Below, piece by piece: positions 1,502-44,991 of a stretch of 48,435 bases of DNA (position 1 is the stretch's first letter; each line of letters starts with the position of its first letter). Below the pieces are notes generated by a model. It was given only the letters and a program-made list of their open reading frames with translations. It was not told where the DNA came from and made no database searches. Source of the DNA: an uncultured Ruminococcus sp. (GTDB lineage: Bacteria > Bacillota > Clostridia > Oscillospirales > Acutalibacteraceae). The position numbers and the translations under genes are program-made. The stretch lies in the NCBI GenBank assembly GCA_964433515.1, contig CAYSRL010000001.1:1-48435 (forward strand), written 5' to 3'.

Positions 1502-1551
1502 CCCTGCATCACTCCTTACGGAATACTATGCAGGGATGCTTCAAACTATAC

Positions 1552-9233: not shown

Positions 9234-9247
9234 AGGATGGCTTCTCC

Positions 9248-10519: not shown

Positions 10520-10580
10520 TTTATACTCCTCATCTCAGAACGCTGTCAGAATAGTATGCTTTCCGGCGGAAACAACTCAA

Positions 10581-12652: not shown

Positions 12653-12685
12653 ATTCTCCCCTGCCTTGTCTGGCAAATACCGTCC

Positions 12686-13984: not shown

Positions 13985-14011
13985 AGTTTTTTCCTCTCTT
14001 ATCGTTTTTCT

Positions 14012-17543: not shown

Positions 17544-17559
17544 AGCGATCTCCTTGTTG

Positions 17560-18906: not shown

Positions 18907-19036
18907 AAGGAACCTCACCTTTCATAATCATTTATCTATATTTTAAAATCATACCACAGCGATCTCCCCTTGGCAAGTGTTTTTTGCTAGGTTACAGCAC
19001 TATGATCGGCGCTTTTCCGGCTACACATATTACCAG

Positions 19037-19122: not shown

Positions 19123-19359
19123 ATGAAAAAAATCATCTGCAAGGTCGAGTACGATACCGAGACCGCTCAGCTCATCGGCAAGGTCACCAGCGGTGAGTTC
19201 GGCGACCCCGCCGGCTATGAAGAGAGCCTGTATCTGACCGAGGACGGCAAGTATTTCATCTATGTCAACGGCGGCGCCGAGTCCATCTATCCCAAAGAGG
19301 ATATCAAGCGCCTGGCCAAGACCAAGGTCGACGAGTGGAAGGCCGAAAAAGGCATCTGA
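19123..19359 (+). CDS. Small cytoplasmic hypothetical protein
   Basis: 78 aa. AAAGGAG RBS, its own promoter and its own terminator. No family was recognised. Confidence 0.65.
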   Translation: MKKIICKVEYDTETAQLIGKVTSGEFGDPAGYEESLYLTEDGKYFIYVNGGAESIYPKEDIKRLAKTKVDEWKAEKGI

Positions 19360-19374
19360 TAAGCCTAAAGAAAA

Positions 19375-19407
19375 CAGCGCACCGACGGTTCGGTGCGCTG
19401 TTTTTTT
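19375..19407. terminator. Rho-independent terminator shared by convergent genes
   Basis: CAGCGCACCGAcggtTCGGTGCGCTG followed by TTTTTTT, with AAAA upstream. Confidence 0.8.
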
Positions 19408-19438
19408 ATTCTTTCTGGCGGATCGGCCGGTCCGGCGA

Positions 19439-26261: not shown

Positions 26262-26396
26262 GCACGATCCGCCGCACAAGTCAACCACCCCTAGGCGATT
26301 GCCAAAAAAGTTTACAAACGGCAACAGGCGGCAAGGATCTCTCCCTTTTTGTTGCCAAAAGGTTGCCATAAAGCAACTGCGGTTTGCATAGGAAAG

Positions 26397-26438
26397 AAAA
26401 AAGCGGCTTGAAATCAAACGATTTCAAGCCGCTTAAAA
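26397..26438. terminator. Terminator hairpin, copy 2 of the 40-nt direct repeat, ending guaA
   Basis: Same AGCGGCTTGAAATC-aaac-GATTTCAAGCCGCT hairpin with flanking A and T runs. Lies 12 nt after the guaA stop codon. Confidence 0.8.
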
Positions 26439-26449
26439 GCCTTACGGTA

Positions 26450-27460
26450 TTATTCCCACTCGATGGTGCCCACCGGCTTCGGGGTCAGGTCCATCAGCAC
26501 ACGGTTGATGCCCTCCACCTCGTGGGTGATGCGGGCGGTGATCTTGTGCAACACGGGATACGGGATCTCCTCAACGGTGGCGCTCATAGCGTCGGTGGTG
26601 TTCACCGCACGGATGATCGCCGGCCAGCCCTCGTAACGGCTGTCGTCCTTGACGCCGACGCTCTTGATATCCGGCACCACCACGAAATACTGCCACACCT
26701 TCTCGCTCAAGCCGCAGTTGTCAAACTCCTCACGGAGGATGGCGTCAGCCTCACGCAGGGCGTGGAGACGGTCCCGGGTGATGGCACCCAGACAACGGAC
26801 ACCCAGACCGGGGCCGGGGAACGGCTGACGGTATACCATAGCGTGGGGCAGACCCAAAGCCTCGCCCACCACACGAACCTCGTCCTTAAACAGCAGTTTG
26901 ATGGGCTCCACCAACTCGAACTGCAGATCCTCCGGCAGTCCGCCCACGTTGTGGTGGGATTTGACCGCCTTTTTGCCCTCGGCGGCTTTGATGGATTCCA
27001 GAATGTCGGGGTAAATGGTGCCCTGCGCCAGATAGGTGATATCCTCCAGTTTCCGGGCCTCATCGGCAAACACCTCGATAAACTCTTTGCCGATGATCTT
27101 GCGCTTACGCTCCGGGTCGGACACGCCCGCCAACAGGTTCAGGAACCGGTCGGTGGCGTCCACATAGATCAGGTTGGCGTCCAGTTCCTCCCGGAACACC
27201 TTGATGACGTTCTCGGACTCATCCTTACGCATCAGGCCGTGGTTTACGTGGACACAGACCAACTGCTTGCCGATAGCCTTGATCAGCAGGGCGGCCACCA
27301 CAGAAGAATCCACGCCGCCGGACAGCGCCAACAGCACCTTTTTGTCCCCCACCTGGGCACGGATAGCCTCCACCTGGGCGTCAATAAACCCATTGGCCAG
27401 GTCGGCGTTGACGATGCGCTCCATTTCCTCGGGGCGAACGTTGGCATTGAAATCAATCAT
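26450..27460 (-). CDS. guaA: GMP synthase, ATP-pyrophosphatase plus dimerisation domains only (no glutamine amidotransferase domain)
   Basis: 336 aa. PP-loop SGGVDSS. Canonical C-terminus KPVGTIEWE. Strong RBS GGGAGG precedes the ATG at 27460, so the short form is not a mis-called start. Confidence 0.9.
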   Translation of the reverse strand: MIDFNANVRPEEMERIVNADLANGFIDAQVEAIRAQVGDKKVLLALSGGVDSSVVAALLIKAIGKQLVCVHVNHGLMRKDESENVIKVFREELDANLIYVDATDRFLNLLAGVSDPERKRKIIGKEFIEVFADEARKLEDITYLAQGTIYPDILESIKAAEGKKAVKSHHNVGGLPEDLQFELVEPIKLLFKDEVRVVGEALGLPHAMVYRQPFPGPGLGVRCLGAITRDRLHALREADAILREEFDNCGLSEKVWQYFVVVPDIKSVGVKDDSRYEGWPAIIRAVNTTDAMSATVEEIPYPVLHKITARITHEVEGINRVLMDLTPKPVGTIEWE

Positions 27461-27493
27461 TTGAATAGCCTCCCTTTTAAACAGTCACTAAGA

Positions 27494-28693
27494 TCAGTTC
27501 GTATAGTTGTCGAAATAGCCCTGTACCAACACCACCGGCGTACCCTTGTCTCCGGAGCCGGAGGTCAGATCGCACAGCGAACCGATCAGGTCGGTGAGCT
27601 GGCGGGGGGTGGTGCCCTGAGAGGCCATATTGCCCACCAGGTTATCCTGCTTTTGGCGGATGCTGTCCGAGATGGCCTGTTTCAGTTCTTCGCCGGACAG
27701 ATCCCGGAAATCGTTGTCCGCCAGGTATTTCAGTTTCAGTTCGTTCGGGGTGCCCACCAGGCCGTCGGTATAGGCCGGGGAGACCACCGGGTCCGCCAAC
27801 TCCCAGATCTTGCCCTGGGGGTCTTTGAAGGCGCCGTCGCCGTACACCATAACCTCCACGTGCTTACCGGTGGCGGCCATGATCCGGCTCTGGATATCCA
27901 GCACCAGATCCTGGCAGGACTGGGGGAACAACTTGATGGAGTCCTCGGTGGACTTGTTGGAGCCCAACAGGCCGTAGCGGTCATTGTAGCCGCTGCCATT
28001 CACCGGGGCGGTGAGAATATCGTCCAGACCGCACACCACCTTGGCGCCGGCGGCCTTGAGGATCCGCTTGGTGCGGGCACGGGTGTGGATATCGCAGGTC
28101 AGCACGTGGTCGGCATAATCCAGAACAGCCCGGGGCTGATTGGCAAAAATGACCTCCACCTCGGCGCCCGCCTCACGGATAAGGTCGCTGTAATACCGGA
28201 CATAGTCCACGCCGGTGAATTCGTGCTTGTTCTCGCCGAACAGTTCCCGGTATTTCTCCAGCGTCAGCACGTCGGAATAGGGGTTGACGCCCGCCTCGTC
28301 CAACTGATCCAGGGACAGCAGATGGTTGCCCACCTCATCCGAGGGATAACTGAGCATCAGCACCACCTTTTTGGCGCCCATAGCGATGCCCTTGAGGCAG
28401 ATGGCAAAGCGGTTGCGGGACAAAATGGGGAACAGCACGCCGATGGTGCCGCCGCCCAGTTTTTGCCGCACATCCTCGGCGATCGCCTCGACAGAGGCGT
28501 AATTGCCCTGTGCCCGGGCCACGATGGACTCGGTGATGGAAATCACATCCCGGTCACGGAGCGAAAAGCCCTCGCTCTGTGCCGCCGCCAGCACGCTGTC
28601 CGCCACAATGGCGGCCAGGTCATCACCCTGGCGGATGATGGGGCAACGGATACCACGGGAAACAGTACCGACCAAACGCATGGAATCTGCCAT
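27494..28693 (-). CDS. CofE-like protein (F420-0:gamma-glutamyl ligase family fold), function unknown in this context
   Basis: 399 aa from MADSMRLVG. The segment CPIIRQGDDLAAIVADSVL...DRDVISITESIVARAQGNY resembles the CofE/F420_ligase N-terminal motif. The track ORF adds 12 codons upstream. Confidence 0.5.
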   Translation of the reverse strand: MADSMRLVGTVSRGIRCPIIRQGDDLAAIVADSVLAAAQSEGFSLRDRDVISITESIVARAQGNYASVEAIAEDVRQKLGGGTIGVLFPILSRNRFAICLKGIAMGAKKVVLMLSYPSDEVGNHLLSLDQLDEAGVNPYSDVLTLEKYRELFGENKHEFTGVDYVRYYSDLIREAGAEVEVIFANQPRAVLDYADHVLTCDIHTRARTKRILKAAGAKVVCGLDDILTAPVNGSGYNDRYGLLGSNKSTEDSIKLFPQSCQDLVLDIQSRIMAATGKHVEVMVYGDGAFKDPQGKIWELADPVVSPAYTDGLVGTPNELKLKYLADNDFRDLSGEELKQAISDSIRQKQDNLVGNMASQGTTPRQLTDLIGSLCDLTSGSGDKGTPVVLVQGYFDNYTN

Positions 28694-28897
28694 AAAGAAT
28701 CGTCCTTTCACGCAACACCAAAGGTGCACAATTTTTTACTGGAATATCATACTCTTATTAATGGTTGATGTCAATATTTCTCCGCCGATTTTGTGAAAAA
28801 TACACGGATTTTTTTGCGGAAAACCCGGCAATTTTGCTGTCAGATACGCCGTTTTTTCCTGTTCAAAATGCTTTAACAATTTTTGTGACAAAAGTAC

Positions 28898-28964: not shown

Positions 28965-30092
28965 ATGAAACGTACCATCCGCATTCTGAGTGCCGTGCTG
29001 GCACTGACCCTGGCTATGTCGGTGATGCTCACCGGCTGCGATTTGTGGAAGCCCACCCTGCCCGGTATCGGCGACGTGGCGGCCACCTATGGCGACGGCC
29101 AGGAGATCTCCACCGGCGAGTATCTGGCGTATCTGTATATGAACTTCTCCAACGTCTACCAAAGTTACTACTATTACGAGCAGTACGGTATGGATCCCTG
29201 GGAGCAGACCGTGCCCTATGACACCGACGAGGTGGATGAAGAGGGTAACACCGTGACCGAGAACCTGCTTCTGGAGGACTATATCATCCAGATCACCAAG
29301 GACACCATCAAACAGCAGATCGTTCTGGACAAGATCCTGAAGGATGAGGGTCTGTCCTGGATCGAGGAAGAGCAGCAGGACATCGAGGCGGAACTGGCTG
29401 AGGTCGAAGAGAACGCCTATCTGTCGCTGGGCATCAACGACGAGCATTTCGCTTCCGTATACAAAAAGATCATGCTCAACCAGCGTGGCGCCTTCTTCGG
29501 CCGTTACGGCGAGGGCGGTACCCAGGAGATCGCAGAGACCGAACTGAAGGAGTATTTCGAGGAGAACTATCTGTCCTACAAGATCATCACCGTCCCGCTG
29601 ACCACGACCAACGACGAGGGCACCACCGAGAATATGTCCGATGACGAGAAGGCCGCCGAACTGAAAACCCTGAACGGCTATCTGGACATCTGCAACGACA
29701 AGGGCTTTGAGAAGGCCATGGACCAGTACAACAAGGACAACGCCGAGGACGACGAAGAAGTCGAGGCCACCGAGGACGAGGACAACCGCCAGAACGTAGA
29801 CGCCACCGAGATGGACGAGTACCTGGTGGAGGCCATCCGCTCCGTCAAGGTGGGTGAGACCAAGGTGGTGGAGTACGAAGCCAGCGGCAGCACCCCCACC
29901 GCCGCCCTGATCCAGCGTCTGGACATCAACGATCCCGAGACCCTGTATGAGGACTCTATCGAGAACATCATCATCGCTCTGAAAGCCGACGGCTTCACCG
30001 AAGAGGTGGAAGCGGCGGTCAAAGAGTTGACCATCACCTTTAACGATAAGATCGTGAAAGAGTGCAAACCCACGGACTTCCTGGAAGGCTAA
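28965..30092 (+). CDS. Acidic secreted lipoprotein, function unknown (possibly a SurA/PrsA-N-like chaperone)
   Basis: 375 aa. Lipobox LTGC. Very Asp/Glu-rich. AAGGAGG RBS. Confidence 0.7.
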   Translation: MKRTIRILSAVLALTLAMSVMLTGCDLWKPTLPGIGDVAATYGDGQEISTGEYLAYLYMNFSNVYQSYYYYEQYGMDPWEQTVPYDTDEVDEEGNTVTENLLLEDYIIQITKDTIKQQIVLDKILKDEGLSWIEEEQQDIEAELAEVEENAYLSLGINDEHFASVYKKIMLNQRGAFFGRYGEGGTQEIAETELKEYFEENYLSYKIITVPLTTTNDEGTTENMSDDEKAAELKTLNGYLDICNDKGFEKAMDQYNKDNAEDDEEVEATEDEDNRQNVDATEMDEYLVEAIRSVKVGETKVVEYEASGSTPTAALIQRLDINDPETLYEDSIENIIIALKADGFTEEVEAAVKELTITFNDKIVKECKPTDFLEG

Positions 30093-30730: not shown

Positions 30731-33160
30731 ATGGAAAAGAAACCCGATAACCGTAAACTCTCTCTCACCGATCTGGCAAAGAATCTGCCCCAGCAGAACA
30801 AGAGCGAGGCCAACGCCCTCGCCCACCCCACCTCCGGCAAAAAAAAGAAACGCCGCCGTTGGGGAAAGCGGTTGCTCCGCCTGTTGCTGGCGGCCGTGCT
30901 GGTTGGCGTCATCACCGTCAGCATCGTGGGATGTGTGCTGGTGGTGTATATCACCAACACCTTTGACGCCGAGGAATTCATCCCCATTTTGGGTGAGATG
31001 TCGGTGGATAACCGCTCGGTCATTTACGTCCAGAACGACGACGGTGAGTTTGAGCCGTATCACAACCTGCTGGGCGGCACCTCGGTATGGACCGACCTGG
31101 AGGATATTCCGGTGTATATGCAGGACGCCGTGGTGGCCATCGAGGACGAACGCTATTGGACCCACGAAGGCGTGGACTGGAAACGTACCGTCGGCGCTAT
31201 GGTGAATCTGGTGTTCAACCGGGTGTTTAACCTGGGCTCCACCGAGTATGGCGGCTCCACCATCACCCAGCAGCTGATCAAGGTGACCACCCAGAACACC
31301 GACCACAGCATCAAGAGAAAGATCAACGAGATCCTTGCCGCCTCCGAGATGGAAGCCGGATATTACACGAAAGAAGAGATCCTCGAAGGGTATCTCAACA
31401 ACGTGCCGTTGACCGGCGATCTGGTGGGTGTGGGCATCGGCGCCCGCTCCTATTTCGGTAAGGAGTTGCAGGAACTGTCCCTGGCGGAGTGCGCCGTATT
31501 GGCCAGCATCACCAACAACCCCAGCATCTACGACCCCTATGCCCACCCGGAAAACGTCCGCCAACGTCAGCAACTGGTGCTGGGCAAAATGTATGAATGC
31601 GGGTTTATCACCGAGGACGAATACATCAACGCCGTAAACGAGGAACTGGTGTTTAAGAGCAGTACCGTCCGGCAAACGGTTCAGGACTATTACGTTGACC
31701 TGGTGGTGGAGGATGTCATCGCCGACCTGATGGAGGAATACGGCTATACCTATACCTATGCCAACAATCTGGTGTATTACGGCGGTCTGAACATCTATTC
31801 CGCCGAAGACCCGGACCTACAGGCAAAGGTGGAGGCCGTTTACGCCGACGAGGATAACTATCCCGAGCACCGCAGCGGCGATGAGGAAGACCCGGAAGCC
31901 TGCTTCTTCGCCGTGGACTATACCGGCCGGGTGGTGGCCACCGTCGGCGGGCGGGGCGAAAAGACCGCCAACCGGGTGCTCAACCGCTCCACCCAGTCGG
32001 TGCGTTCCCCCGGCTCTTCCATCAAGCCCATCACCTCCTATGGCCCCTCGATCATTGAGAACCGGGTGCATTATTCCTCTATGCTGCGGGACGCCCCCAT
32101 CACCCTGACCAACGGCGATAAATGGCCCCACAACTATGAGGCGACCAGCACCCCCGACCGGGGCGACGTGCTATTGGGCGTGGCGCTGCAAAAATCCCTC
32201 AACACCACCGCCGCCCGGTTGGTGCAGAATCTGACCCCTCAGCGCAGTTACGACTACGCCACCAACATCTTCCGCCTGTCCACCCTGGTGGAGTCCAAAG
32301 CGGTCGGCGGGAAACTGTATACCGATATCGACCTTTCCCCCATGGCGCTGGGCGCTTTGTCGGACGGCGTCACCGCCCGGGAGATGACCGCCGCCTATGC
32401 CATTTTCGGCAGCGGCGGATACTATTGCGAACCCTACACCTATTACAAGGTCACCCAAGGACAGTTGGACAATGAGACCGTCCTGCTGACCGGCGGGCAG
32501 AAAGCCTCCCTCTCTATGGACTCCCAGAGTGCTTTTATTATGGTGAGCCTGTTGCGGCGGGTCGTAGAACAGGGTACCGCCTGGAACGGCATAGGCCAAA
32601 ACTGGAAGGGCTGGCAGGTGTTCGGCAAGACCGGTACCTCCGAAAGCGAAAAGGACGTGTATTTCTCCGGCGGCACCGCCTATTACTGCGCCTCCTCCTG
32701 GTTCGGCTATGACAACAACGACATTCTGTCCAAGTCCCAGACCGGCTATGCCAAAAGTCTGTGGAACAAAGCCATGAAGGTGCTCCACGAAGACCTGCAG
32801 ATCAAAGATTTTGAGATGCCGGAAGGGGTGGAAAAACTGGAATACTGCACCGAGACCGGTCAGTTGGCCACCGACGGATGCAAAAAGACCGATACCGGTT
32901 ATTATAAGTCGGATTTCAAACCCGACAAGTGCGAAAAGCACAGCGAGACCGCCACCACCTCCACCACCCAGGCGGATACGAAGGGCGAGACCGGCAAAAC
33001 CTCCGGCGAAACCACCGCAAATGAAGAGGAGACCGCCTCCACCGCCAAGAGTGAGAAGACCACTTCCGCCACCCAGAGTGAGGAAACGACTTCTGCCACC
33101 GAGAGTGAGGCAACAGAGCCCTCCGCCACCGCCGAAAAGCCGGAGGACGAGGACGCATAA
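30731..33160 (+). CDS. Class A penicillin-binding protein (GT51 transglycosylase plus transpeptidase), PBP1A family
   Basis: 809 aa. Contains the GT51 motifs AVVAIEDERYWTHEGVD and GGSTITQQL, and the transpeptidase SxxK motif (SPGSSIKP). Low-complexity Thr/Ser/Glu C-terminal tail. Confidence 0.92.
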   Translation: MEKKPDNRKLSLTDLAKNLPQQNKSEANALAHPTSGKKKKRRRWGKRLLRLLLAAVLVGVITVSIVGCVLVVYITNTFDAEEFIPILGEMSVDNRSVIYVQNDDGEFEPYHNLLGGTSVWTDLEDIPVYMQDAVVAIEDERYWTHEGVDWKRTVGAMVNLVFNRVFNLGSTEYGGSTITQQLIKVTTQNTDHSIKRKINEILAASEMEAGYYTKEEILEGYLNNVPLTGDLVGVGIGARSYFGKELQELSLAECAVLASITNNPSIYDPYAHPENVRQRQQLVLGKMYECGFITEDEYINAVNEELVFKSSTVRQTVQDYYVDLVVEDVIADLMEEYGYTYTYANNLVYYGGLNIYSAEDPDLQAKVEAVYADEDNYPEHRSGDEEDPEACFFAVDYTGRVVATVGGRGEKTANRVLNRSTQSVRSPGSSIKPITSYGPSIIENRVHYSSMLRDAPITLTNGDKWPHNYEATSTPDRGDVLLGVALQKSLNTTAARLVQNLTPQRSYDYATNIFRLSTLVESKAVGGKLYTDIDLSPMALGALSDGVTAREMTAAYAIFGSGGYYCEPYTYYKVTQGQLDNETVLLTGGQKASLSMDSQSAFIMVSLLRRVVEQGTAWNGIGQNWKGWQVFGKTGTSESEKDVYFSGGTAYYCASSWFGYDNNDILSKSQTGYAKSLWNKAMKVLHEDLQIKDFEMPEGVEKLEYCTETGQLATDGCKKTDTGYYKSDFKPDKCEKHSETATTSTTQADTKGETGKTSGETTANEEETASTAKSEKTTSATQSEETTSATESEATEPSATAEKPEDEDA
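33040..33130 (+). repeat. Imperfect 27-nt (9-aa) tandem repeats encoding the PBP1A C-terminal tail
   Basis: SEKTTSATQ / SEETTSATE / SEATEPSATA. The corresponding DNA units ACTTCCGCCACCCAGAGTGAGGAAACG and ACTTCTGCCACCGAGAGTGAGGCAACA are near-identical. Confidence 0.7.
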
Positions 33161-35813: not shown

Positions 35814-35842
35814 TTGACAAAATCATTTATACCATATATTAT
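35814..35842 (+). promoter_or_regulatory. Sigma-A promoter candidate for the rnf operon
   Basis: TTGACA (35814-35819), 17-nt spacer, TATTAT (35837-35842). Confidence 0.55.
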
Positions 35843-35937: not shown

Positions 35938-37260
35938 ATGGCATTTTCTCTCCACGGGGTCCATGTACCCCACAGAAAAAGCACCCAAAACAAGCCTCTC
36001 TGCAAAATGGATCTGCCCAAAACCGTTGTGATCCCCATGCGTATGCACATCGGCGAGCCTGCCACCCCCATCGTTAAGGTGGGTGACCTGGTCAAGGTGG
36101 GACAAAAGATCGCCGAGGCGGGAGGGACTATCTCCTCCCCCATCCACGCCAGCGTATCCGGCAAGGTCACCAAGGTGACCGACTTTCTCACCTCCCGTGG
36201 GGAGACCGTCCCGGCGGTGATGATCGAATCCGATGGGGAAATGACGGTGGATGAAAGCGTTGTTCCGCCCACCGTCAACAGCCGTGAGGATCTCATCCAC
36301 GCCATCAAAGAAAGCGGCATCGTGGGTCTGGGCGGCGCCGGATTCCCCACCCATATAAAATTGGATGTGGAGCCGGAGCGTATCGACTGGCTGGTCATCA
36401 ACGGCGCCGAGTGTGAGCCCTACGTCACCAGCGACACCGTGACTATGTTGAACCGTGCCGACGATATGGCTATCGCCCTGCGGGCCCTGTCCCGCTATAT
36501 GGGTATCCGGAATGTGGTCATCGGTATCGAAAGCAATAAAAAACAGGCCATCGCCGTGATGCGGGAGATGGCCGCCCAACTGACCGAGGACTGCACCGTT
36601 GTCATCAAGGTGCTGCCCGCCCAGTATCCTCAGGGCGGCGAAAAAGTGCTGGTCTACGCCACCACCGGGCGGGTGATCCCCGCCGGCAAACTGCCCGTCG
36701 ACGTGGGCTGTGCGGTGCTCAACTGCACCACCCTGGCCGCCATCGGCGCCTATCTGACCACCGGTATGCCGCTGGTGGAGAAGTGCGTGACGGTGGACGG
36801 CGGCTGTGTGGCCAACCCCCAGAACCTGCTGGTGCCCATCGGCACCTCTATGGCGGACGTGTTTGCCGCCTGCGGCGGTCTGGTCAGCGAGCCGGAAAAA
36901 CTCATCTACGGCGGGCCGATGATGGGTATCACCGTGCCGAACGACACCGCCCCCATTCTTAAAAACACCAACGCCGTCCTGGCGCTCACCGGCAAAGAGG
37001 CCTGGCTGCCCAAGACCACTGCCTGTATCCGGTGCGGTGCCTGTACCAACATCTGCCCCTTCGGTCTGGCCCCCGCCGCCATCTCCAACGCCCTGGGCAA
37101 ACGGGACGCCGAGGCGTTGGAGGAACTGGCGGTGAACGCCTGTATGGAGTGCGGTTGTTGCAGTTTCGTCTGCCCCGCCAACCGGCCTCTGGTCCAGAAC
37201 AACAAACTGGGCAAAACATTCCTGCGGGAAGCCAAAGCAAGGGAGGATGCCAAACAATGA
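35938..37260 (+). CDS. rnfC: Rnf electron-transport complex subunit C
   Basis: 440 aa. NADH/FMN-binding segment GLGGAGFPTH. Two 4Fe-4S motifs, CIRCGACTNICP and CMECGCCSFVCP. Confidence 0.93.
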   Translation: MAFSLHGVHVPHRKSTQNKPLCKMDLPKTVVIPMRMHIGEPATPIVKVGDLVKVGQKIAEAGGTISSPIHASVSGKVTKVTDFLTSRGETVPAVMIESDGEMTVDESVVPPTVNSREDLIHAIKESGIVGLGGAGFPTHIKLDVEPERIDWLVINGAECEPYVTSDTVTMLNRADDMAIALRALSRYMGIRNVVIGIESNKKQAIAVMREMAAQLTEDCTVVIKVLPAQYPQGGEKVLVYATTGRVIPAGKLPVDVGCAVLNCTTLAAIGAYLTTGMPLVEKCVTVDGGCVANPQNLLVPIGTSMADVFAACGGLVSEPEKLIYGGPMMGITVPNDTAPILKNTNAVLALTGKEAWLPKTTACIRCGACTNICPFGLAPAAISNALGKRDAEALEELAVNACMECGCCSFVCPANRPLVQNNKLGKTFLREAKAREDAKQ

Positions 37261-38183
37261 GCGTGAATCAAAAATTGACCGTTTCCCCGCATATCCACAG
37301 CGGTCACTCCACCTCCCGCATTATGCTGGACGTGCTGATCGCCCTGCTCCCCGCCACGGTAGCGGGCGTGGTCATCTTCGGTCTGCGCAGCCTGCTGGTG
37401 GTGGGTATCTGCGTAGCCTCCTGTGTGGGGTTGGAGGCGCTGTTTAACTACATTACCAAAAAGGACCAGACGGTAGGCGACCTGTCCGCCGCCGTCACCG
37501 GTCTGCTGTTGGGTCTGAATCTGCCCGCCAACATCCCGCTGTGGCAGTGTGTCATCGGCTCGGTGTTCGCCATCGTGGTGGTCAAGTGCCTGTTTGGCGG
37601 TATCGGCCAGAACGTGGTCAACCCCGCCATCACCGCCCGGGTGTTTATGCTGGTGGCCTTTGGCTCTATGGCCCAGGCGGCCCACCCCGTCATCACCCCC
37701 GACACCGTGGCGGGCGCCACCCCTCTGGCCGCCGAGCAAATGCCCTCTCTTCTGGATCTGTTTCTGGGTCTGCACGGCGGCGCCATCGGCGAGACCTGCG
37801 CCGCCGCCCTGCTGTTGGGCGGTGTGTATCTGCTGATCCGCCGGGTCATCTCCTGGCACATCCCGGTGGTCTACATCGGCACCGTGTTTGCCTTCTCCTT
37901 CCTGATGGAGGGCTTTGACCCCACCCGGGCGCTGGCGCTGAGCCTGTCCGGCGGTCTGTTTATCGGCGCTTTCTTTATGGCCACCGATTACGTCACCTCT
38001 CCCCCCACCCCTTGGGGCAAGGTCATCTACGCTCTGGGTTGTGGTCTGCTGACCGGTCTTATCCGGTATTTTGGCTCCTATCCGGAGGGCGTATCCTTTG
38101 CCATTCTGTTTATGAACATTCTGACCCCCTATATCAGCAAATGGACCCAGCATAAGGTCTTCGGAGCGGGAGGTGCGAAATGA
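37257..38183 (+). CDS. rnfD: Rnf complex subunit D
   Basis: 308 aa from MSVNQKLTVSPHIHSG. ATGA overlap with rnfC. The flavinylation context VAGATPLA is present. The track ORF includes an upstream in-frame extension inside rnfC. Confidence 0.92.
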   Translation: MSVNQKLTVSPHIHSGHSTSRIMLDVLIALLPATVAGVVIFGLRSLLVVGICVASCVGLEALFNYITKKDQTVGDLSAAVTGLLLGLNLPANIPLWQCVIGSVFAIVVVKCLFGGIGQNVVNPAITARVFMLVAFGSMAQAAHPVITPDTVAGATPLAAEQMPSLLDLFLGLHGGAIGETCAAALLLGGVYLLIRRVISWHIPVVYIGTVFAFSFLMEGFDPTRALALSLSGGLFIGAFFMATDYVTSPPTPWGKVIYALGCGLLTGLIRYFGSYPEGVSFAILFMNILTPYISKWTQHKVFGAGGAK

Positions 38184-39337
38184 TGGTCAAGAACATCAAA
38201 AGCGTAGCGGTGCTGGTGGCTATCTGCGGTGTGATCGCCCTGTTGCTGGCGGGCACCAACGCCATCACCGCCCCCATCATTGAGAAAAATGCCGCCGCCG
38301 CCGCCAACGAGGCACTGCTGGTGGTGATGCCGGAGGGCACCGGGTTTGAGGCGGTGGATCTGGCCGCCTATGAACTGCCCGCCACCGTCACCGAAGCCTA
38401 TAAGGAGACTGCCGGTGCCGGTTACGTGGTCAAACTGGTGACCAAAGGCTATGGTTCCGATTTCGTGATCATGTGCGGCGTGGACGCCGAAGGCACCGTC
38501 ACCGGCGCCGTCTGCCTGTCCTCCACCGAAACCCTGGGCAAGGAAAAAGAGTACGGTCAGAACTTCACCGGCAAAAATGCCGAAGGGGTGGAGGCCACCG
38601 ACACCATTGCCGGAGCCACCCTGACCTCCCAAGCCTATAAAAACGCCGTTAAGGATGCCCTGAACGCCGCCATCATCCTGGGCGGCGGCAGTGTAGACAT
38701 CCGCACCGAGGATCAAATTTTTGCGGACAATCTGGCCGCCGCTCTGCCGGAGGGCGATGCCTTTGTCAAATGGTTCGCCACCGAGCAACTGACCGGTGTG
38801 GACGCCATCTATGTGGCGGATAACGGCGCCGGCTATGTCTGTGTCATCGGCGAGGAATTTGTGGGCGTGGATGCCGCCGGCAGATCCGACAGCACGGCCG
38901 CCGCCGATGCCGTCAACGCTCTGCAGAATTCCACTCTGGAGCAAATGGATATTGCCGACAGCGGTATCCACCAGAACATCACCAAGGCGGAAAAGACCGC
39001 TTCCGGCAACTATGTGTTTGAGATCAACGCCGCCGGCTATGGCATCAAGGGTGGCAGCCAATACCACCCCGCCTCCGGCGAATATATCCGTATCCGGGTG
39101 TCTATGACCCCCGCCGGAAAGATCATCGACTGTCTGACCCTCTCCGAGGAGGAGACCGACAACCTGGGCTCTGCCTGTGGCGAAGAGAGTTTCTACGGAC
39201 AGTTTGCCGGCAAGACCGCCGACACCCTCTCTGAGGTGGACGCCATCTCCGGCGCCACCATCACCACCAACGGCTATCTGGAGGCTATCCAGCGCTGCTT
39301 TGAGGCGGTCACCATTCTGGAAGGAGGTGCCCAGTAA
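38180..39337 (+). CDS. rnfG: Rnf complex subunit G with two tandem FMN-binding domains
   Basis: 385 aa, versus about 180-210 aa as I recall for typical RnfG. N-terminal TM segment. FMN_bind-like domain 1 ends at DTIAGATLTS (Thr147, nt 38618-38620). Domain 2 ends at VDAISGATITT (Thr360, nt 39257-39259). Confidence 0.85.
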   Translation: MMVKNIKSVAVLVAICGVIALLLAGTNAITAPIIEKNAAAAANEALLVVMPEGTGFEAVDLAAYELPATVTEAYKETAGAGYVVKLVTKGYGSDFVIMCGVDAEGTVTGAVCLSSTETLGKEKEYGQNFTGKNAEGVEATDTIAGATLTSQAYKNAVKDALNAAIILGGGSVDIRTEDQIFADNLAAALPEGDAFVKWFATEQLTGVDAIYVADNGAGYVCVIGEEFVGVDAAGRSDSTAAADAVNALQNSTLEQMDIADSGIHQNITKAEKTASGNYVFEINAAGYGIKGGSQYHPASGEYIRIRVSMTPAGKIIDCLTLSEEETDNLGSACGEESFYGQFAGKTADTLSEVDAISGATITTNGYLEAIQRCFEAVTILEGGAQ

Positions 39338-40026
39338 TGAATAAAGACAGCAATCTGGCTACCCTGTGGAAGGGTATTCTGAAGGAAAACCCGGTGCTGG
39401 TGCTCATTCTCGGCACCTGCCCCACCCTGGCCACCACCAACACGGTGGACGGTGCCTTTGGTATGGGTCTGGCCGCCCTGGCGGTGCTGGTCTGTTCCAA
39501 CGTGTTTATTTCTCTGTTGCGAAAAGTGATCCCGGATACCATGCGTATCCCCTGCTATATCGTCATCATCGCCGGTTTTGTCACCATCGTGAAGATGATC
39601 GTTCAGGCCTATCTGCCCTCTTTGTATGAGACCCTGGGCGTGTATCTGGATCTGATCACGGTCAACTGCATCATCCTGGGCCGGGCAGAAATGTTCGCCA
39701 GCAAAAACCCGGTGGTGAAGTCCGCTCTGGACGGCATCGGTATGGGCATTGGCTTCACCCTGGCGCTCACCGCCATGGCCACCATCCGGGAGGTGTTCGG
39801 TTCCGCCTCCTTTGCCGGTATCGCCATCCCCTTCCTGGCGGATTACAAGATCGAGTTTTTGACCAAGGCGCCCGGCGGTCTGCTGGTGTACGGTCTGCTG
39901 ATTGCGCTGGTGTATGTCATCACCAACGGCAAATACCCCAAGAAGAAATCCTTCTCCTGCGCCGGTTGCCCCAATGCAGGCTCCTGCCACACCGGCTCCT
40001 GCCAAGAGAAAGGAGTTGAGGAATAA
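39337..40026 (+). CDS. rnfE: Rnf complex subunit E, with a Cys-rich C-terminal tail
   Basis: 229 aa. An RnfE/NqrD-like polytopic core is followed by the tail KKKSFSCAGCPNAGSCHTGSCQEKGVEE. Confidence 0.9.
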   Translation: MNKDSNLATLWKGILKENPVLVLILGTCPTLATTNTVDGAFGMGLAALAVLVCSNVFISLLRKVIPDTMRIPCYIVIIAGFVTIVKMIVQAYLPSLYETLGVYLDLITVNCIILGRAEMFASKNPVVKSALDGIGMGIGFTLALTAMATIREVFGSASFAGIAIPFLADYKIEFLTKAPGGLLVYGLLIALVYVITNGKYPKKKSFSCAGCPNAGSCHTGSCQEKGVEE

Positions 40027-40622
40027 TGGATATGAAAAACCTTGCCATCATCCTGTTTGGCTCCATCCTCACCAACAACTACGTGCTCAGCCGGTTTTTG
40101 GGCATCTGCCCCTTCCTGGGCGTGTCCAAGAAACTGGATCAGGCCACCGGTATGGGCATCGCCGTTACGGCGGTGATGCTGTTGGCCACCGCCGTCACCT
40201 GGCCCATCCAGTATTTCGTGCTCAACACCCTGAACTTGGGGTATATGCAGAACATCGTCTTTATTCTGGTTATCGCCGCCCTGGTGCAGATGCTGGAGTT
40301 GCTGCTCAAAAAGTTCTCCCCCGCCCTGCACAAAGGTTTGGGCGTGTATCTGCCCCTCATCACCACCAACTGTGCGGTGCTGGGTGTCACCATCAACAAC
40401 ATCAACGACGAATACACCTTCCTGGAGTCGATGGTCAGTTCGCTGGGCTGCGGTCTGGGCTTTTTGCTGGCTATGGTGCTGTTCTCCGGTCTGCGCTCCC
40501 GCATCAACGAGGACAACATCCCCGCTCCTTTCCGTGGTCTGCCGGTCACCCTCATCGCCGCCGCCTTTATTTCCCTGGCCTTTATGGGCTTTGGCGGCAT
40601 CGTTGAGAGCATTTTCGCTTAA
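40026..40622 (+). CDS. rnfA: Rnf complex subunit A
   Basis: 198 aa. RnfA/NqrE family (NNYVLSRFLGICPFLGVS). Confidence 0.92.
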   Translation: MDMKNLAIILFGSILTNNYVLSRFLGICPFLGVSKKLDQATGMGIAVTAVMLLATAVTWPIQYFVLNTLNLGYMQNIVFILVIAALVQMLELLLKKFSPALHKGLGVYLPLITTNCAVLGVTINNINDEYTFLESMVSSLGCGLGFLLAMVLFSGLRSRINEDNIPAPFRGLPVTLIAAAFISLAFMGFGGIVESIFA

Positions 40623-40640
40623 AAAGGAGGTAACATAAAA

Positions 40641-41477
40641 ATGGATATTTTGGTTGCTTTCTTAGTGGTTTCGGCGGTGGCGCTGGTCTTGGGTATCGCT
40701 TTGGCGGTGCTCTCCCATTTCTTCGCCGTGCCGGAAGACCCCACCTATACGAAAGTCCGTGCCTGCCTGCCGGGTATCAACTGCGGCGCCTGCGGATACA
40801 AGGGCTGTGACGACTATGCCGCCGCCCTGGCCGAGGGTGGGGTCAGCCCCAGCCTCTGCGTCCCCGGCGCTCAGGACGTGGCCGACCAGATCGGCGCCAT
40901 CCTCGGCGTGGAGGCGGAGCCCTTTGAGGACGTGGTGGCTTTTGTGGCCTGCAACGGCAACTGCGACGCCACCGGTAACAAGGCCTCTTATGACGGTGTG
41001 CCCACCTGCGCCGCCGCCTCGATGCTGTATGGCGGTCCCGGTGAGTGTTCTTACGGCTGTCTGGGTCTGGGGGACTGCGCCAAGGCCTGTCCCGCCGACG
41101 CCATCTGCACCATCGACGGCATCGCCCACGTGGACACCAGCCGGTGTCTGGGCTGCGGCGTTTGCGCCGGTGTCTGCCCCAAGGGCATCATCCATATGCT
41201 GCCCCAGTCGGCAATGGTGGCGGTGATGTGCAGCAGCAAAGCCAAGGGCGCCGACGCCCGCAAGGCCTGCAAAAACGCCTGTATCGCCTGTAAAAAGTGC
41301 GAAAAGACCTGCCCCAACGATGCCATCACGGTGGTGGATAACCTGGCGGTCATCGACTATGACAAGTGCATCCGTTGCGGTGCCTGTGCCGAGGTGTGCC
41401 CCACCGGCTGTCTGAAAAAAGTGTTCTTCCCCGATCGGCCGGAAGGCGTGAAGGCGGAAGACCTGCTGAACGATTAA
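40641..41477 (+). CDS. rnfB: Rnf complex subunit B (polyferredoxin)
   Basis: 278 aa. N-terminal TM segment, a CxxC..C cluster, then several 4Fe-4S motifs: CLGCGVCAGVCP, CIACKKCEKTCP and CIRCGACAEVCP. Confidence 0.92.
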   Translation: MDILVAFLVVSAVALVLGIALAVLSHFFAVPEDPTYTKVRACLPGINCGACGYKGCDDYAAALAEGGVSPSLCVPGAQDVADQIGAILGVEAEPFEDVVAFVACNGNCDATGNKASYDGVPTCAAASMLYGGPGECSYGCLGLGDCAKACPADAICTIDGIAHVDTSRCLGCGVCAGVCPKGIIHMLPQSAMVAVMCSSKAKGADARKACKNACIACKKCEKTCPNDAITVVDNLAVIDYDKCIRCGACAEVCPTGCLKKVFFPDRPEGVKAEDLLND

Positions 41478-41873
41478 ATGAAAACAAAAAACCGTACCGC
41501 AAAACAAAAAATACGCAACGACATCCTGTTTATCGCCGCCCTGCTGTTGGTGGTGACGGTGGCGGGAGCGTGTCTGTGGCTGTTCCGGGGTGAGGGTGAC
41601 ACCGTCACCGTCACGGTGGACGGCGAGGTGTATGGGGTGTACGCTCTATCCGAGGATCGGGTGGAGGACATCCGCACCGGAGAGACCGGCCTCAACCGGC
41701 TGGTTATCCAAAACGGCGAAGCAAGCATCGAAACCGCCACCTGCCCCGACGGCATCTGCGCCGGGCACCGGCCCATCAGCCGGGAGGGAGAGAGCATCGT
41801 CTGTCTGCCCCATCGGGTGGTGGTGACCGTCACCGCCGCCCACACCGCCGACCAACCGGACATTGTGGTATAA
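41478..41873 (+). CDS. NusG domain II-containing membrane-anchored protein (DUF1312)
   Basis: 131 aa. TM anchor followed by a beta-rich domain with CPDGICAGHRPIS...IVCLPHRVVV, typical of NusG_II proteins. Starts 1 nt after the rnfB stop codon. Confidence 0.7.
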   Translation: MKTKNRTAKQKIRNDILFIAALLLVVTVAGACLWLFRGEGDTVTVTVDGEVYGVYALSEDRVEDIRTGETGLNRLVIQNGEASIETATCPDGICAGHRPISREGESIVCLPHRVVVTVTAAHTADQPDIVV

Positions 41874-41885
41874 GGAGGTCTTAGC

Positions 41886-42386
41886 GTGAAAACCAATGCA
41901 AAAAAGACCGCCTTTCTGGGCTTGTGCGTGGCGGTGGCGCTGATACTCGCCTATGTGGAGGCGCTGTTGCCCCCGCTGGTTTCTGCCGTTCCCGGCATCA
42001 AAATGGGACTGCCGAACCTGGTCATCATCTTCCTGCTGTACCGGCGGGGTGTCTGGCCGGCGGCGGCTGTGTCCCTCTGCCGGATCGTGCTGGTGACGCT
42101 GTTGTTCGGCAACACCATGGCGTTGCTGTACAGCCTGGCCGGCGGTGTGCTGAGCCTCACCGCTATGGCGGTGCTGAAACGGCTGGATTTCTTGTCCATA
42201 ACCGGGGTCAGCGTGGCCGGCGGTGTGCTCCACAACGTGGGGCAGATCCTGATGGCAATGCTGGTGCTGGGCACCGCTGAGTTGGGGTATTACCTCATTG
42301 TGCTGGCGGTGACCGGCACGGTGGCGGGGCTCTGTATCGGTCTGGGCGGTGCCCTGCTGATCCGGCGGATCCCCACCCGACTGTGA
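41886..42386 (+). CDS. Gx transporter family protein (Hpre_diP_synt_I / ECF-S-component-like)
   Basis: 166 aa with 5-6 TM segments. GTG start preceded by TAAGGAGG. The sequence (ALILAYVEALLPP..PGIKMGLPNLVII) resembles the Gx transporter/heptaprenyl-diphosphate-synthase-component-I family. Confidence 0.65.
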   Translation: MKTNAKKTAFLGLCVAVALILAYVEALLPPLVSAVPGIKMGLPNLVIIFLLYRRGVWPAAAVSLCRIVLVTLLFGNTMALLYSLAGGVLSLTAMAVLKRLDFLSITGVSVAGGVLHNVGQILMAMLVLGTAELGYYLIVLAVTGTVAGLCIGLGGALLIRRIPTRL

Positions 42387-42476
42387 AAGTGTTGACAAGC
42401 CCTTTGCTGTATGCTACAATGAAAATAGCGTAGACCCTGTATGCTATTCAAAAAATATTTGTCGAGGAGAATGACT

Positions 42477-43454
42477 ATGAAAAAGATTGTTTCCCTGTGC
42501 CTGTGTGCGGCCCTGCTGGTGTCCGCCTGTGCTCTGACCGGCTGTACTGCCGAGGCAAAGACCCTGAAATTCGGCTCGGCGGTGTATGTCTCCGACCCCA
42601 CCGCCACCGACGCCGACGGCGATGCGAACGGTACCGCCGAGGTGGACGTGACCGTGGCCGCCGTGTCTGTGGACGCCGACGGCAAGATCGTCGCCTGCGC
42701 TCTGGATACGATGCAGAGCAGCCTGTCCTATACCTCCGACGGTAAGGCTGTGGGCAACCCCGAAGCTCAGACCAAGTATGAGCAGGGTGCCGACTATGGT
42801 ATGGTCGCCTATGGCGGCGCCACCAAGGAGTGGTATGAGCAGGCCGACGCCTTTGAGGGCGTGGTTGCCGGCAAGACCCTGGACGAGGTCAAGGCTCTGA
42901 TCGTAGAAGGCTATGGCACCGAAGAGGTGCAGACCGCCGGTTGCACCATCGCCATCAGCGAGTTTGTGGGCGCCGTCGAGAAGGCCTATAATGCCGCCGC
43001 CGACTCCAACGTGACCGCCGACCACACCCTGAAGGTCACCGCCTATACCGTCCAGACCATTGAGGATGCCACCGCCGATGCGGACGGCACCAACGAGGTG
43101 GAGGTCTATGTGTATGCCGCCGCCCTGGACGCTGACAGCAAGGTCGTCGCCGGTAACAGCGACTGCGTGCCGGTTTCCTTCACCTTTGACATCACCGGTA
43201 AGTCCACCTTTGACACCACCCAGGAGATCCTGTCCAAGAAGGAGCAAGGCTCCAACTACGGTATGGTCGCCTATGGCGGCGCCGCCAAGGAGTGGTACGA
43301 GCAGGCCGCCGCTTTTGATGCCCAGTGCATCGGCAAGACCGGCGACGAGATCGCCGGCCTGATGAGCGTCGACGGCAAGGGCGTGGAAGAAGTTCAGACC
43401 GCCGGCTGCACCATCTATGTGTCCGGTTTTGTGGCTGCCGCTTCCAAAATCTAA
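42477..43454 (+). CDS. Lipoprotein made of two tandem ~150-aa repeats, each ending in an FMN_bind-like EEVQTAGCTI motif
   Basis: 325 aa from MKKIVSLCLCAALLVSACALTGC (lipobox). GAGGAG RBS. The track ORF starts 12 codons earlier. Repeat 1 spans roughly aa 28-175 and repeat 2 roughly aa 183-325. Confidence 0.8.
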   Translation: MKKIVSLCLCAALLVSACALTGCTAEAKTLKFGSAVYVSDPTATDADGDANGTAEVDVTVAAVSVDADGKIVACALDTMQSSLSYTSDGKAVGNPEAQTKYEQGADYGMVAYGGATKEWYEQADAFEGVVAGKTLDEVKALIVEGYGTEEVQTAGCTIAISEFVGAVEKAYNAAADSNVTADHTLKVTAYTVQTIEDATADADGTNEVEVYVYAAALDADSKVVAGNSDCVPVSFTFDITGKSTFDTTQEILSKKEQGSNYGMVAYGGAAKEWYEQAAAFDAQCIGKTGDEIAGLMSVDGKGVEEVQTAGCTIYVSGFVAAASKI

Positions 43455-43471
43455 ACCAAACCAACCATAAA

Positions 43472-43501
43472 AAGCGGGAGGGTCCACCTCCCGCTTTTTT
43501 G
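43472..43501 (+). terminator. Rho-independent terminator (possibly partial) between the lipoprotein gene and apbE
   Basis: GCGGGAGG-tcca-CCTCCCGC followed by TTTTTT. Confidence 0.7.
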
Positions 43502-43517
43502 CTCTGTGGGTATATCT

Positions 43518-44564
43518 ATGAGAAAACGAATGCTGGCAGGAATGATGGGGATATGCCTGTTGTTGGGATGCCTCACCGCCTGCAAACAAGAACCCGAAAA
43601 ATATTCCACGTATTCCTTCGACTTTTTTGATACCGCCACCACCATCACCGGCTATGCCGACAGCCAGGAGGAATTTGACCGGGTGGCAGAAGGTGTTAAA
43701 GCCCAATTATTGGAATACCACCGGCTCTACGACATCTATCTGCGCTATGAGGGGCTTTCCAACCTCTGCACCGTCAACGACCTGGTGGACGGGGCTCACC
43801 CCACCGTGACGGTGGACCGGCGGATCGTCGACCTGCTTGTGTATGCCAAAGAGATGCACCAAACGACCGGCGGAATGGTCAACGTGGCTATGGGCAGTGT
43901 GCTGAAACTCTGGCACGACCGCCGCACCATCGGTGCGGATGACCCCGCCAATGCCACCCTGCCGCCCATGGACAGCCTCCGGGAAGCCGCCCAGCACACG
44001 GATATCCAGGCGGTGGTCATCGACGAGGCGAACAGCACCGTCACCCTCACCGACCCGCTGATGCGGTTGGATGTGGGCGCCATCGCCAAGGGCTATGCGG
44101 TGGAGCAGGTGGCTCTGTGGATGGAACAAGAGGGATACACCGGCTATGTGCTGAACGTGGGCGGTAACGTCCGCACCGTAGGCGGAAAACCGGACGGCTC
44201 CGGATGGGCCGTGGGCATCGAGAACCCTGCCGACACCGCCGCCGATCACATCGCCACGCTGGAACTGAGCGGGATGGCGCTGGTGACCAGCGGATCCTAT
44301 CAGCGGTATTACGTGGTGGACGGTAACCGGTATCACCACATCATCCACCCGGACACCCTGATGCCCTCTGAGGGGCTTTTGTCGGTGTCGGTGGTGTGCC
44401 CCGATTCCGGGCTGGGGGATGCCCTTTCCACCGCCCTGTTCTGTTTGTCCCCCGCCGAGGGACTGGCTTTGGTAGAATCCCTGCCGGAGGTAGAGGCGCT
44501 ATGGGTGGCCGAAGACGGCACCCAAGCGGTTTCCTCCGGATGGAGCAAGTATGTGAAACAATGA
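43518..44564 (+). CDS. apbE: FAD:protein FMN transferase (ApbE/Ftp), lipoprotein
   Basis: 348 aa from MRKRMLAGMMGICLLLGCLTAC (lipobox). ApbE family segments DVGAIAKGYA and LVTSGSYQRY..HHIIHP. The track start is a GTG four codons upstream. Confidence 0.88.
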   Translation: MRKRMLAGMMGICLLLGCLTACKQEPEKYSTYSFDFFDTATTITGYADSQEEFDRVAEGVKAQLLEYHRLYDIYLRYEGLSNLCTVNDLVDGAHPTVTVDRRIVDLLVYAKEMHQTTGGMVNVAMGSVLKLWHDRRTIGADDPANATLPPMDSLREAAQHTDIQAVVIDEANSTVTLTDPLMRLDVGAIAKGYAVEQVALWMEQEGYTGYVLNVGGNVRTVGGKPDGSGWAVGIENPADTAADHIATLELSGMALVTSGSYQRYYVVDGNRYHHIIHPDTLMPSEGLLSVSVVCPDSGLGDALSTALFCLSPAEGLALVESLPEVEALWVAEDGTQAVSSGWSKYVKQ

Positions 44565-44577
44565 GGAGTGTATCGCT

Positions 44578-44949
44578 GTGTTTGATGCGTTTGTAAATCA
44601 TTATGAAAGCCTTTTGCACCAATTTGCCGAGGTGTCCGCTCTGTCGCTGGAGTTTATCGGCGTGGCCATCATCGTTATCGGATCGATCAAGGCACTGGCC
44701 CAGCTTGTGCGCCGTCTGCTCCGCCGGGAGCCCATCAACATCGTTATCGAGTTGGGCAAAACGCTGGCACTGGCGCTGGAATTCAAGATGGGTGCCGAGA
44801 TCATCAAGACGGTTATCGTCCACGACCTGACCGAATTGGCGGTGCTGGGCATCGTCATTCTCATCCGTGCCTTGCTGGCCTTCCTCATCCATTGGGAGAT
44901 CAAAATGGAGAAAAAGGACAACGAAGAGGACGAGAAAAAAGCAGATTAA
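44578..44949 (+). CDS. DUF1622 membrane protein
   Basis: 123 aa with 3-4 TM segments. IGVAIIVIGSIKAL...LALEFKMGAEIIKT is characteristic of DUF1622. GTG start. Confidence 0.65.
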   Translation: MFDAFVNHYESLLHQFAEVSALSLEFIGVAIIVIGSIKALAQLVRRLLRREPINIVIELGKTLALALEFKMGAEIIKTVIVHDLTELAVLGIVILIRALLAFLIHWEIKMEKKDNEEDEKKAD

Positions 44950-44955
44950 CCGACA

Positions 44956-44991
44956 GGGGGAACGGTTTTTGGCCGTTCCCCCTTTATTTTT
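44956..44991 (+). terminator. Rho-independent terminator
   Basis: GGGGGAACGG-tttttgg-CCGTTCCCCC followed by TTTATTTTT. Confidence 0.8.

Follow-up and report, generated by a model that had tools for sequence, protein, structure and literature searches.

We analysed a 48,435-nucleotide stretch of DNA from an uncultured Ruminococcus sp. of the Acutalibacteraceae (assembly GCA_964433515.1, contig CAYSRL010000001.1, positions 1 to 48,435 of the forward strand; hereafter the window), in which five genes directly follow a complete set of rnf genes. We consider it probable that this region corresponds to the extracytoplasmic half of a flavin-based electron-export locus of the Listeria type, coupled here to rnf, which replaces the usual genes for NDH-2 and quinone synthesis. 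It is well supported that the region contains a module for the export of flavin adenine dinucleotide (FAD) and the attachment of flavin, serving RnfD, RnfG and, very probably, a lipoprotein encoded between the exporter and the flavin transferase. An earlier note on this DNA had proposed an extracytoplasmic flavinylation module, and our analysis bears this out. The family assignments, the homology of the lipoprotein repeats to FMN_bind, the conservation of their acceptor residue, the synteny, and the conservation of promoter and terminator are observed directly here, while FAD export by EetB and transfer of flavin mononucleotide (FMN) by ApbE are established in the literature for homologs.

Layout of the locus

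The genes rnfC-D-G-E-A-B (35938-41477) encode a complete six-subunit Rnf and are preceded by a promoter-like site, TTGACA-17-TATTAT, at 35814-35842; these and all window features described below are on the + strand unless stated otherwise. The five genes that follow run in the same direction in the order NusG_II, PF07456, lipoprotein, apbE and DUF1622, and they belong to the families that the earlier note had assigned, four of them by Pfam match. The NusG_II gene, which we call eetA (41478-41873; PF07009, E=1.2e-26), encodes a protein with one N-terminal membrane helix. The rnfB stop codon TAA (41475-41477) is directly followed by the eetA ATG at 41478, as had been noticed, so that the junction (region 41460-41480) reads TAAATG. 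The abutting start and the lack of a Shine-Dalgarno sequence suggest that eetA is translationally coupled to rnfB. Next comes eetB (41886-42386; PF07456, Hpre_diP_synt_I or 'Gx transporter', E=9.5e-33), whose product is polytopic and resembles the S component of energy-coupling factor (ECF) transporters. The lipoprotein gene is listed as an open reading frame (ORF) at 42441-43454, and its likely start is the ATG at 42477 (MKKIVSL, with GAGGAG 7 nt 5') rather than 42441; the product of 42477-43454 is 325 amino acids long and carries the lipobox LTGC. For apbE (listed ORF 43506-44564; PF02424, E=2.8e-69), which encodes a lipoprotein FAD:protein FMN transferase, the likely start is the ATG at 43518. 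The last gene (44578-44949; PF07784, E=8e-18) encodes a small DUF1622 membrane protein with two hydrophobic segments.

A predicted FAD exporter and a flavin transferase next to rnf

The window EetB matches PF07456 at 113.7 bits against a cut-off of 30, and it is by PF07456 that eetB homologs were defined in PMC9973259. The Listeria EetB is a PF07456 protein with an ECF-S fold that binds FAD and is needed for FmnB, an ApbE homolog, to flavinylate PplA (Rivera-Lugo et al. 2023, PMC9973259), and EetA is a NusG_II protein, PF07009 (Data Set S1, PMC9973259). By homology to Listeria EetB, the PF07456 protein of the window is predicted to be an FAD exporter, and the earlier suggestion that the Gx transporter exports flavin is supported on the same grounds. 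The statement that the roles of these proteins are undefined does not stand: EetB is experimentally an FAD-exporting ECF-S subunit, and NusG_II is EetA (PMC9973259). The central idea of the earlier note, a Gx/NusG-II flavin exporter serving ApbE beside rnf, was thus already published in 2023. Colocalization of eetB has been reported with eetA in 3,328 genomes, with apbE in 2,169 genomes and with Rnf genes in 572 Clostridia genomes (PMC9973259); in the window, eetA lies 12 nt upstream of eetB and apbE 1.1 kb downstream of it. The apbE product has both an ApbE domain (234 bits to PF02424 over the full model) and an extracytoplasmic lipoprotein signal (N-terminal MRKRMLAGMMGICLLLGCLTAC with lipobox LTAC).

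Canonical flavin acceptors in RnfD and RnfG

Three canonical flavinylation targets are present, as the earlier note had claimed. RnfD carries the motif TVAGATPL with the acceptor T155 (codon 37719-37721), and RnfG carries TIAGATLT with T147 (38618-38620) in its first domain and AISGATIT with T360 (39257-39259) in its second. This two-domain form of RnfG, 385 amino acids long in the window, is the rule in the lineage: the protein measures 381-405 amino acids in all 67 relatives examined. Multi-domain RnfG proteins in Rnf clusters have been noted before, with the proposal that they open a second path to extracytoplasmic acceptors (Meheust et al. 2021, PMC8238504).

The lipoprotein consists of two divergent FMN_bind domains

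The lipoprotein ORF has no match in Pfam or NCBIfam. A profile search of 1.84 billion representatives places it in a family of 1,609 clusters (50% identity) at E<=1e-3, or 497 at E<=1e-30. As described earlier, the protein is made of two repeats, which are 53% identical (E=2e-38); we place the domain bounds at about 42558-43010 and 43020-43451. Neither repeat matches Pfam FMN_bind (PF04205) at E<=10. Two independent family profiles match PDB 2KZX (E=2.1e-8 and 1.6e-7), and in both the AGCT or ASVT of the family falls on the SGAT of the structure. Against PF04205, 2KZX reaches 31.1 bits (cut-off 22), and PMC4348036 likewise gives it as an FMN_bind member. In hhalign comparisons the family aligns with RnfG domain 2 (E=2.5e-4), motif on motif, and its alignment with RnfG domain 1 is not significant (E=0.022, probability 2%). 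Judged by the 2KZX matches and the alignment with RnfG domain 2, each repeat is a divergent FMN_bind domain of the FMN-bind2-like kind.

The domain profile spans 148 positions, giving domains of about 150 amino acids. Among 150 representatives clustered at 50% identity, most proteins have two copies (126) and others four (11), six (2), three (3), five (1) or one (7); at least some of the seven single-domain members are apparently fragments. A confident AlphaFold model of the window protein (predicted local distance difference test score 88, predicted template modelling score 0.84) has three long strands of 9-15 residues in each domain, and its template modelling score implies that the two domains are held in a fixed arrangement. 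Similar features have been described for FMN-bind2, a domain of about 160 amino acids that occurs in two or four copies, usually an even number, has extended strands whose sheet faces pair two domains into one pseudo-symmetric unit, and lacks an InterPro entry (Huang et al. 2024, mSystems, PMC11334425; exemplar NTW96865.1). Our family resembles it by description in domain size (about 150-160 amino acids), in mostly having two or four copies, in its extended beta-strands and in having no InterPro entry. That paper does not mention the variant acceptor motif described below, a PplA-like gene position, Rnf linkage or the expression signals.

Both repeats read EEVQTAGCT at the acceptor site, with no Asp at position -6 and Cys at -1. 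The predicted flavinylation sites are T157, in the AGCT at 42936-42947, and T312, in the AGCT at 43401-43412. Across 315 domains of the 150 representatives, the acceptor position holds T (293) or S (19) in 99% of cases, while its neighbours vary: position -1 is C in 247, V in 50, A in 9 and T in 6; position -2 is G in 221, S in 58 and T in 16; and position -3 is A in 263, S in 37 and T in 11. The family variant of the motif is therefore A-[GS]-[CV]-[TS], and canonical SGAT, AGAT and ASAT also occur. A Thr or Ser that is kept while its surroundings change points to selection on the residue that ApbE would modify rather than on the Cys. Mutagenesis of a canonical motif showed that A to V at -1 and G to A at -2 leave about 50% flavinylation and that replacing the Asp by Ala has little effect (PMC12052999), a tolerance that makes AGCT a plausible acceptor. 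The lipoprotein, which the earlier note had listed as a possible fourth target, is very probably a further ApbE substrate, given its divergent FMN_bind domains, its conserved acceptor and the apbE gene next door.

It is also conceivable that the lipoprotein carries no covalent flavin and that its degenerate repeats bind free flavin or another ligand, for instance in handing FAD over from EetB to ApbE or in scavenging flavin. We regard this as improbable. Its appeal lies in a motif that departs from D-x-x-[ST]-G-A-[ST], in the lack of a Pfam FMN_bind match, in high expression from its own promoter (see below), which would suit a binding protein, and in the published suggestion of targeted flavin delivery to ApbE, for which no carrier was named (PMC9973259). 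Yet 99% of the 315 divergent domains retain the acceptor Thr or Ser amid variable neighbours, which fits selection on a modified residue; some members have canonical motifs; and the family sits at the PplA position in electron-export loci.

A further suggestion, very improbable in our view, is that the Cys beside the Thr is the functional centre, in thiol/disulfide or metal chemistry, and that the similarity to FMN_bind is vestigial. The Cys at -1 is indeed invariant in the close clade, where C74, C230 and C284 are conserved as well, but these other cysteines are not conserved in a diverse alignment of 60 members. We rejected a Cys-centred function because about 21% of domains have Val, Ala, Thr or Ile instead of the Cys; among these are whole ASVT or SSVT proteins that are still followed by apbE.

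We note separately that the close clade in which C74 (42696-42698), C230 (43164-43166) and C284 (43326-43328) are invariant spans 64-77% identity. Such extra cysteines, added to the Cys at -1 of each acceptor threonine, are puzzling in a protein that an anaerobe places outside its membrane.

Gene neighbourhoods in close and distant relatives

We compared neighbourhoods in two sets. The close set comprises 80 species-level genomes, all from uncultured Acutalibacteraceae, Oscillospiraceae or other Clostridia of animal guts. The distant set, obtained with an alignment of divergent family members only, comprises 80 metagenomic loci, of which 30 have at least 5 kb on both sides and are called well flanked here. 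The apbE gene stands immediately 3' of the lipoprotein gene in 78/78 close loci, in 48 of the 54 informative distant loci and in five of six sampled divergent architectures. Directly 5' of the lipoprotein gene, eetB is found in 63/74 close loci, and it is present in at least 10 of the 30 well-flanked distant loci. Linkage to rnf follows a different pattern: rnf is present in 66/69 close loci, and rnfC or rnfD in none of the 30 well-flanked distant ones. Of the two associations that the earlier note had proposed for the lipoprotein, the one with apbE holds in nearly all loci, and the one with rnf holds among close relatives but not in the well-flanked distant loci.

When the neighbours in the distant loci were clustered, at least 16 of 43 showed the order NDH-2-like Pyr_redox_2 protein (683 amino acids), polyprenyl synthetase, UbiA, NusG_II, PF07456, family member and ApbE. 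By this gene order, the family occupies the PplA position of a Listeria-type electron-export locus, complete versions of which thus house family members in other Firmicutes. The earlier note had drawn the Listeria comparison as an analogy; with the family at the PplA position in Ndh2-DmkB-DmkA-EetA-EetB-X-ApbE loci, the likeness is one of homology. The conserved core is [eetA-eetB]-lipoprotein-apbE, and the adjoining genes for membrane electron entry vary by lineage, being rnf in the lineage of the window.

DUF1622 follows apbE in 55/74 close loci and in 0/30 well-flanked distant loci. It is a lineage-specific neighbour and no core component of the module in which the earlier note had placed it. 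The literature gave nothing useful on its role, and it has no similarity to the small membrane ORFs behind the related clusters in loci L083 and L084. In seven genomes the lipoprotein-apbE-DUF1622 block lies upstream of rnfC instead, which indicates that the block behaves as a separate module.

Transcription units

Identical promoter and terminator detectors were run on every gene junction in 80 loci, with a promoter match defined as at least 10/12. Such a match was found 5' of rnfC in 59/59 cases and 5' of the lipoprotein gene in 74/78, compared with at most 13% for the other internal genes (apbE 0/79, DUF1622 0/56). A hairpin followed by a T-run was found after the lipoprotein gene in 66/80 loci and after DUF1622 in 37/55, compared with at most 14% for other internal genes. 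In the window, the lipoprotein gene promoter lies between eetB and the lipoprotein gene at 42392-42420 (TTGACA-17-TGcTACAAT, 11/12, with an extended -10 element). Seven promoter-like sites were found in this region of the window against 4.5 expected, and the lipoprotein promoter alone is not significant; the claim therefore rests on its conservation across loci rather than on the match in the window. This promoter had been missed in the earlier note.

The intrinsic terminator 3' of the lipoprotein gene (43472-43501), a hairpin pointed out previously, is real: it has a 13-bp stem including an A-U extension, a centroid energy of -22.7 kcal/mol (z=-4.6) and a T-run after it. A second terminator with 13 pairs (44955-44983) closes the apbE-DUF1622 unit. 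Terminator stem sequences differ between loci, which indicates that what is conserved is the structure. The apbE gene starts 17 nt past the T-run (region 43495-43520) and has a weak ribosome-binding site, with no clear Shine-Dalgarno sequence, consistent with low apbE expression; it also lacks a separate promoter. An Rfam scan of the whole window found neither riboswitches nor other RNA families.

On the same controls across junctions we reject a single extended rnf operon. The view of these genes as a simple extension of the rnf operon is not supported, since a separate promoter (74/78) and terminator (66/80) flank the lipoprotein gene and the block is relocated in seven genomes. From these signals we infer three units: rnfCDGEAB-eetA-eetB, the lipoprotein gene under a strong promoter of its own, and apbE-DUF1622, transcribed by read-through. 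Such units would yield an abundant substrate, the lipoprotein, and a scarce enzyme, ApbE.

Does Rnf feed electrons to the lipoprotein?

We propose that EetB, possibly with EetA and with a shared ECF-T/ATPase module encoded elsewhere, would export FAD, and that the lipoprotein ApbE would then attach FMN by a phosphoester bond at five sites: T155 of RnfD, T147 and T360 of RnfG, and T157 and T312 of the lipoprotein. The lipoprotein, a putative PplA-like surface electron carrier, would be produced in surplus from the strong promoter of its gene, and a leaky terminator would pass only some transcripts into apbE-DUF1622. The reduced flavins of the two-domain RnfG could then hand electrons to the lipoprotein and from there to extracellular acceptors. 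Three of these steps we infer: flavinylation of the lipoprotein, read-through of the terminator and, most of all, the passage of electrons from Rnf to the lipoprotein, the last from the lineage-wide linkage to rnf, the lack of any other membrane donor in the locus and the occurrence of multi-domain family members beside rnfC-D-G in loci L083, L084 and L088. It is tempting to speculate that gut Clostridia without quinone genes run a complete Rnf-driven chain, from ferredoxin or reduced nicotinamide adenine dinucleotide (NADH) through the second flavin domain of RnfG to an abundant di-flavin surface lipoprotein, whose AGCT motif lies outside the ApbE consensus, and on to external acceptors, with the leaky terminator setting the ratio of lipoprotein to ApbE. 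We offer this fuller scheme tentatively, as a possibility.

The synteny data could also be read as a maturation island and nothing else, in which the dependence of RnfD and RnfG on ApbE and on FAD outside the membrane explains why EetA/EetB, ApbE and the lipoprotein are encoded beside rnf, and in which the flavinylated lipoprotein works apart from Rnf with another donor, for example in iron reduction for uptake, in oxygen scavenging or on a soluble substrate. This is a rather unlikely alternative. In 26/30 well-flanked distant loci the family gene and apbE form a pair with no rnf, and NDH-2 and quinone-synthesis genes accompany the pair in at least 16; the lipoprotein-apbE-DUF1622 block has its own promoter and moves as a unit relative to rnf; and a multi-FMN protein can reduce O2 (review, PMC12052999). 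Several observations are harder to reconcile with it, however: 66/69 loci of the window's lineage keep the block beside rnf, in either orientation; RnfG is always of the two-domain form; the locus holds no NDH-2, PepSY, MsrQ or NapH as an alternative membrane donor; and clusters with only RnfC-D-G also adjoin family members.

A number of points weigh against an Rnf-linked electron-export locus as we propose it. Since the family is usually not beside rnf (neither rnfC nor rnfD occurs in the 30 well-flanked distant loci), adjacency to rnf is not a family property and may reflect only the shared need for ApbE and FAD export. The lipoprotein repeats lack the canonical motif D-x-x-[ST]-G-A-[ST], none of 60 family members matches Pfam FMN_bind at E<=1, and a Foldseek search of the lipoprotein model against PDB gave no significant match. 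The 48-kb window contains no gene for ECF-T (FmnA) or ECF-A/A'; most genomes do not have eetB colocalized with ECF-T/ECF-A genes, and such modules are commonly shared (PMC9973259). Deletion of eetA in Listeria gave no electron-export phenotype (PMC9973259). The promoter, the terminator and read-through are sequence predictions.

Comparison with known systems and implications

The Listeria monocytogenes locus comprises Ndh2, DmkA, DmkB, EetA, EetB, PplA, FmnB and FmnA. The window shares EetA, EetB and an ApbE-type flavin transferase with it and likewise has a lipoprotein with two, here predicted, flavinylation domains between eetB and apbE. Ndh2, DmkA, DmkB and FmnA are missing, and rnfCDGEAB replaces the membrane electron-entry genes: where the Listeria locus has Ndh2 and demethylmenaquinone genes, the window and 66/69 close relatives have rnf. 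The lipoproteins differ as well, in that the motif is AGCT in the window and S/TGAT in Listeria-type proteins, and Pfam FMN_bind is blind to the window lipoprotein. According to a 2019 study, pairs of cad(pplA) and apbE were confined to genomes lacking rnf; in the window, by contrast, a lipoprotein-apbE pair stands beside rnf.

The colocalization and the two-domain RnfG that we observe agree with published rnf-eetA-eetB-apbE clusters (PMC9973259) and multi-flavinylated RnfG proteins (PMC8238504). In published models of Clostridia Rnf, EetB and ApbE serve RnfD and RnfG only, whereas the window adds a separately promoted, probable di-flavin lipoprotein between eetB and apbE. The NQR/RNF-like one-way systems (Meheust et al. 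2021) share the idea that part of the Rnf/Nqr machinery sends electrons outward to an extracytoplasmic flavin domain. They use a fusion of NqrB/RnfD to an NAD-binding domain and one NqrC/RnfG-like subunit, unlike the window with its complete six-subunit Rnf. What appears to be new is the Rnf-linked form of the module, the family at the PplA position with a variant acceptor motif that domain databases have missed, and the nested promoter and terminator; most else was known.

Should the lipoprotein carry flavin and receive its electrons from Rnf, a large group of uncultured Clostridia from gut and rumen would have quinone-free electron export, their ferredoxin/NADH pool would be linked directly to external acceptors, and the two-domain forms of RnfG, so far merely noted, would gain a concrete role. 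Because the family is invisible to Pfam and NCBIfam, surveys using PF04205 and [S/T]GA[S/T] undercount ApbE substrates. Flavinylation at the A-[GS]-[CV]-[TS] motif would make ApbE less specific than it is now known to be, a point of relevance to flavin tagging.

Related clusters and other genes in the window

In L084 (8001-14265) and L088 (7063-14260), the genes for a four-domain family member and ApbE precede rnfC, rnfD, a single-domain rnfG and an ORF for a polytopic membrane protein of 143-145 amino acids without a Pfam match, after which come unrelated genes. Neither Pfam nor tblastn revealed rnfE, rnfA or rnfB in these clusters, which could encode an RnfC-D-G chain that carries electrons one way, from NADH to flavins outside the membrane, and are nearer to the one-way systems than the window is.

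Two further members, P0122 (991 amino acids; L081:401-3376) and P0131 (983 amino acids; L083:8001-10952), have six tandem domains with one variant motif throughout, ASVT six times or ASCS six times, and each lies directly 5' of apbE. In L083, apbE is followed by rnfC-D, a 649-amino-acid RnfG, rnfE-A and eetA-eetB; no rnfB was detected there. At L082:1778-5510, a divergent two-domain member with SSVT motifs and apbE precede a 446-amino-acid Pyr_redox_2 protein, possibly a type II NADH dehydrogenase. By its gene content, L082 is a minimal three-gene version of the module.

Elsewhere in the window, a surface-polysaccharide cluster occupies 7743-15945 on the - strand, with genes for a Polysacc_synt flippase, a FemAB/GNAT-like protein, an ATP-grasp ligase, a Bac_transf sugar transferase and a DegT aminotransferase, and with two ORFs without a Pfam match (9248-10519 and 11624-12676). 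Two MmgE/PrpD-family paralogs lie in tandem at 16188-18918, also on the - strand; as listed, the two ORFs share about 120 nt, which makes it probable that the downstream paralog begins further in. Long + strand ORFs (375-794 amino acids) without a Pfam match at E<=1e-5 are found at 1528-3435, 19262-20722, 26384-28768 and 28965-30092, and since some of these face equally long ORFs on the opposite strand, their coding strand is uncertain. A further long ORF lies at 30731-33160.

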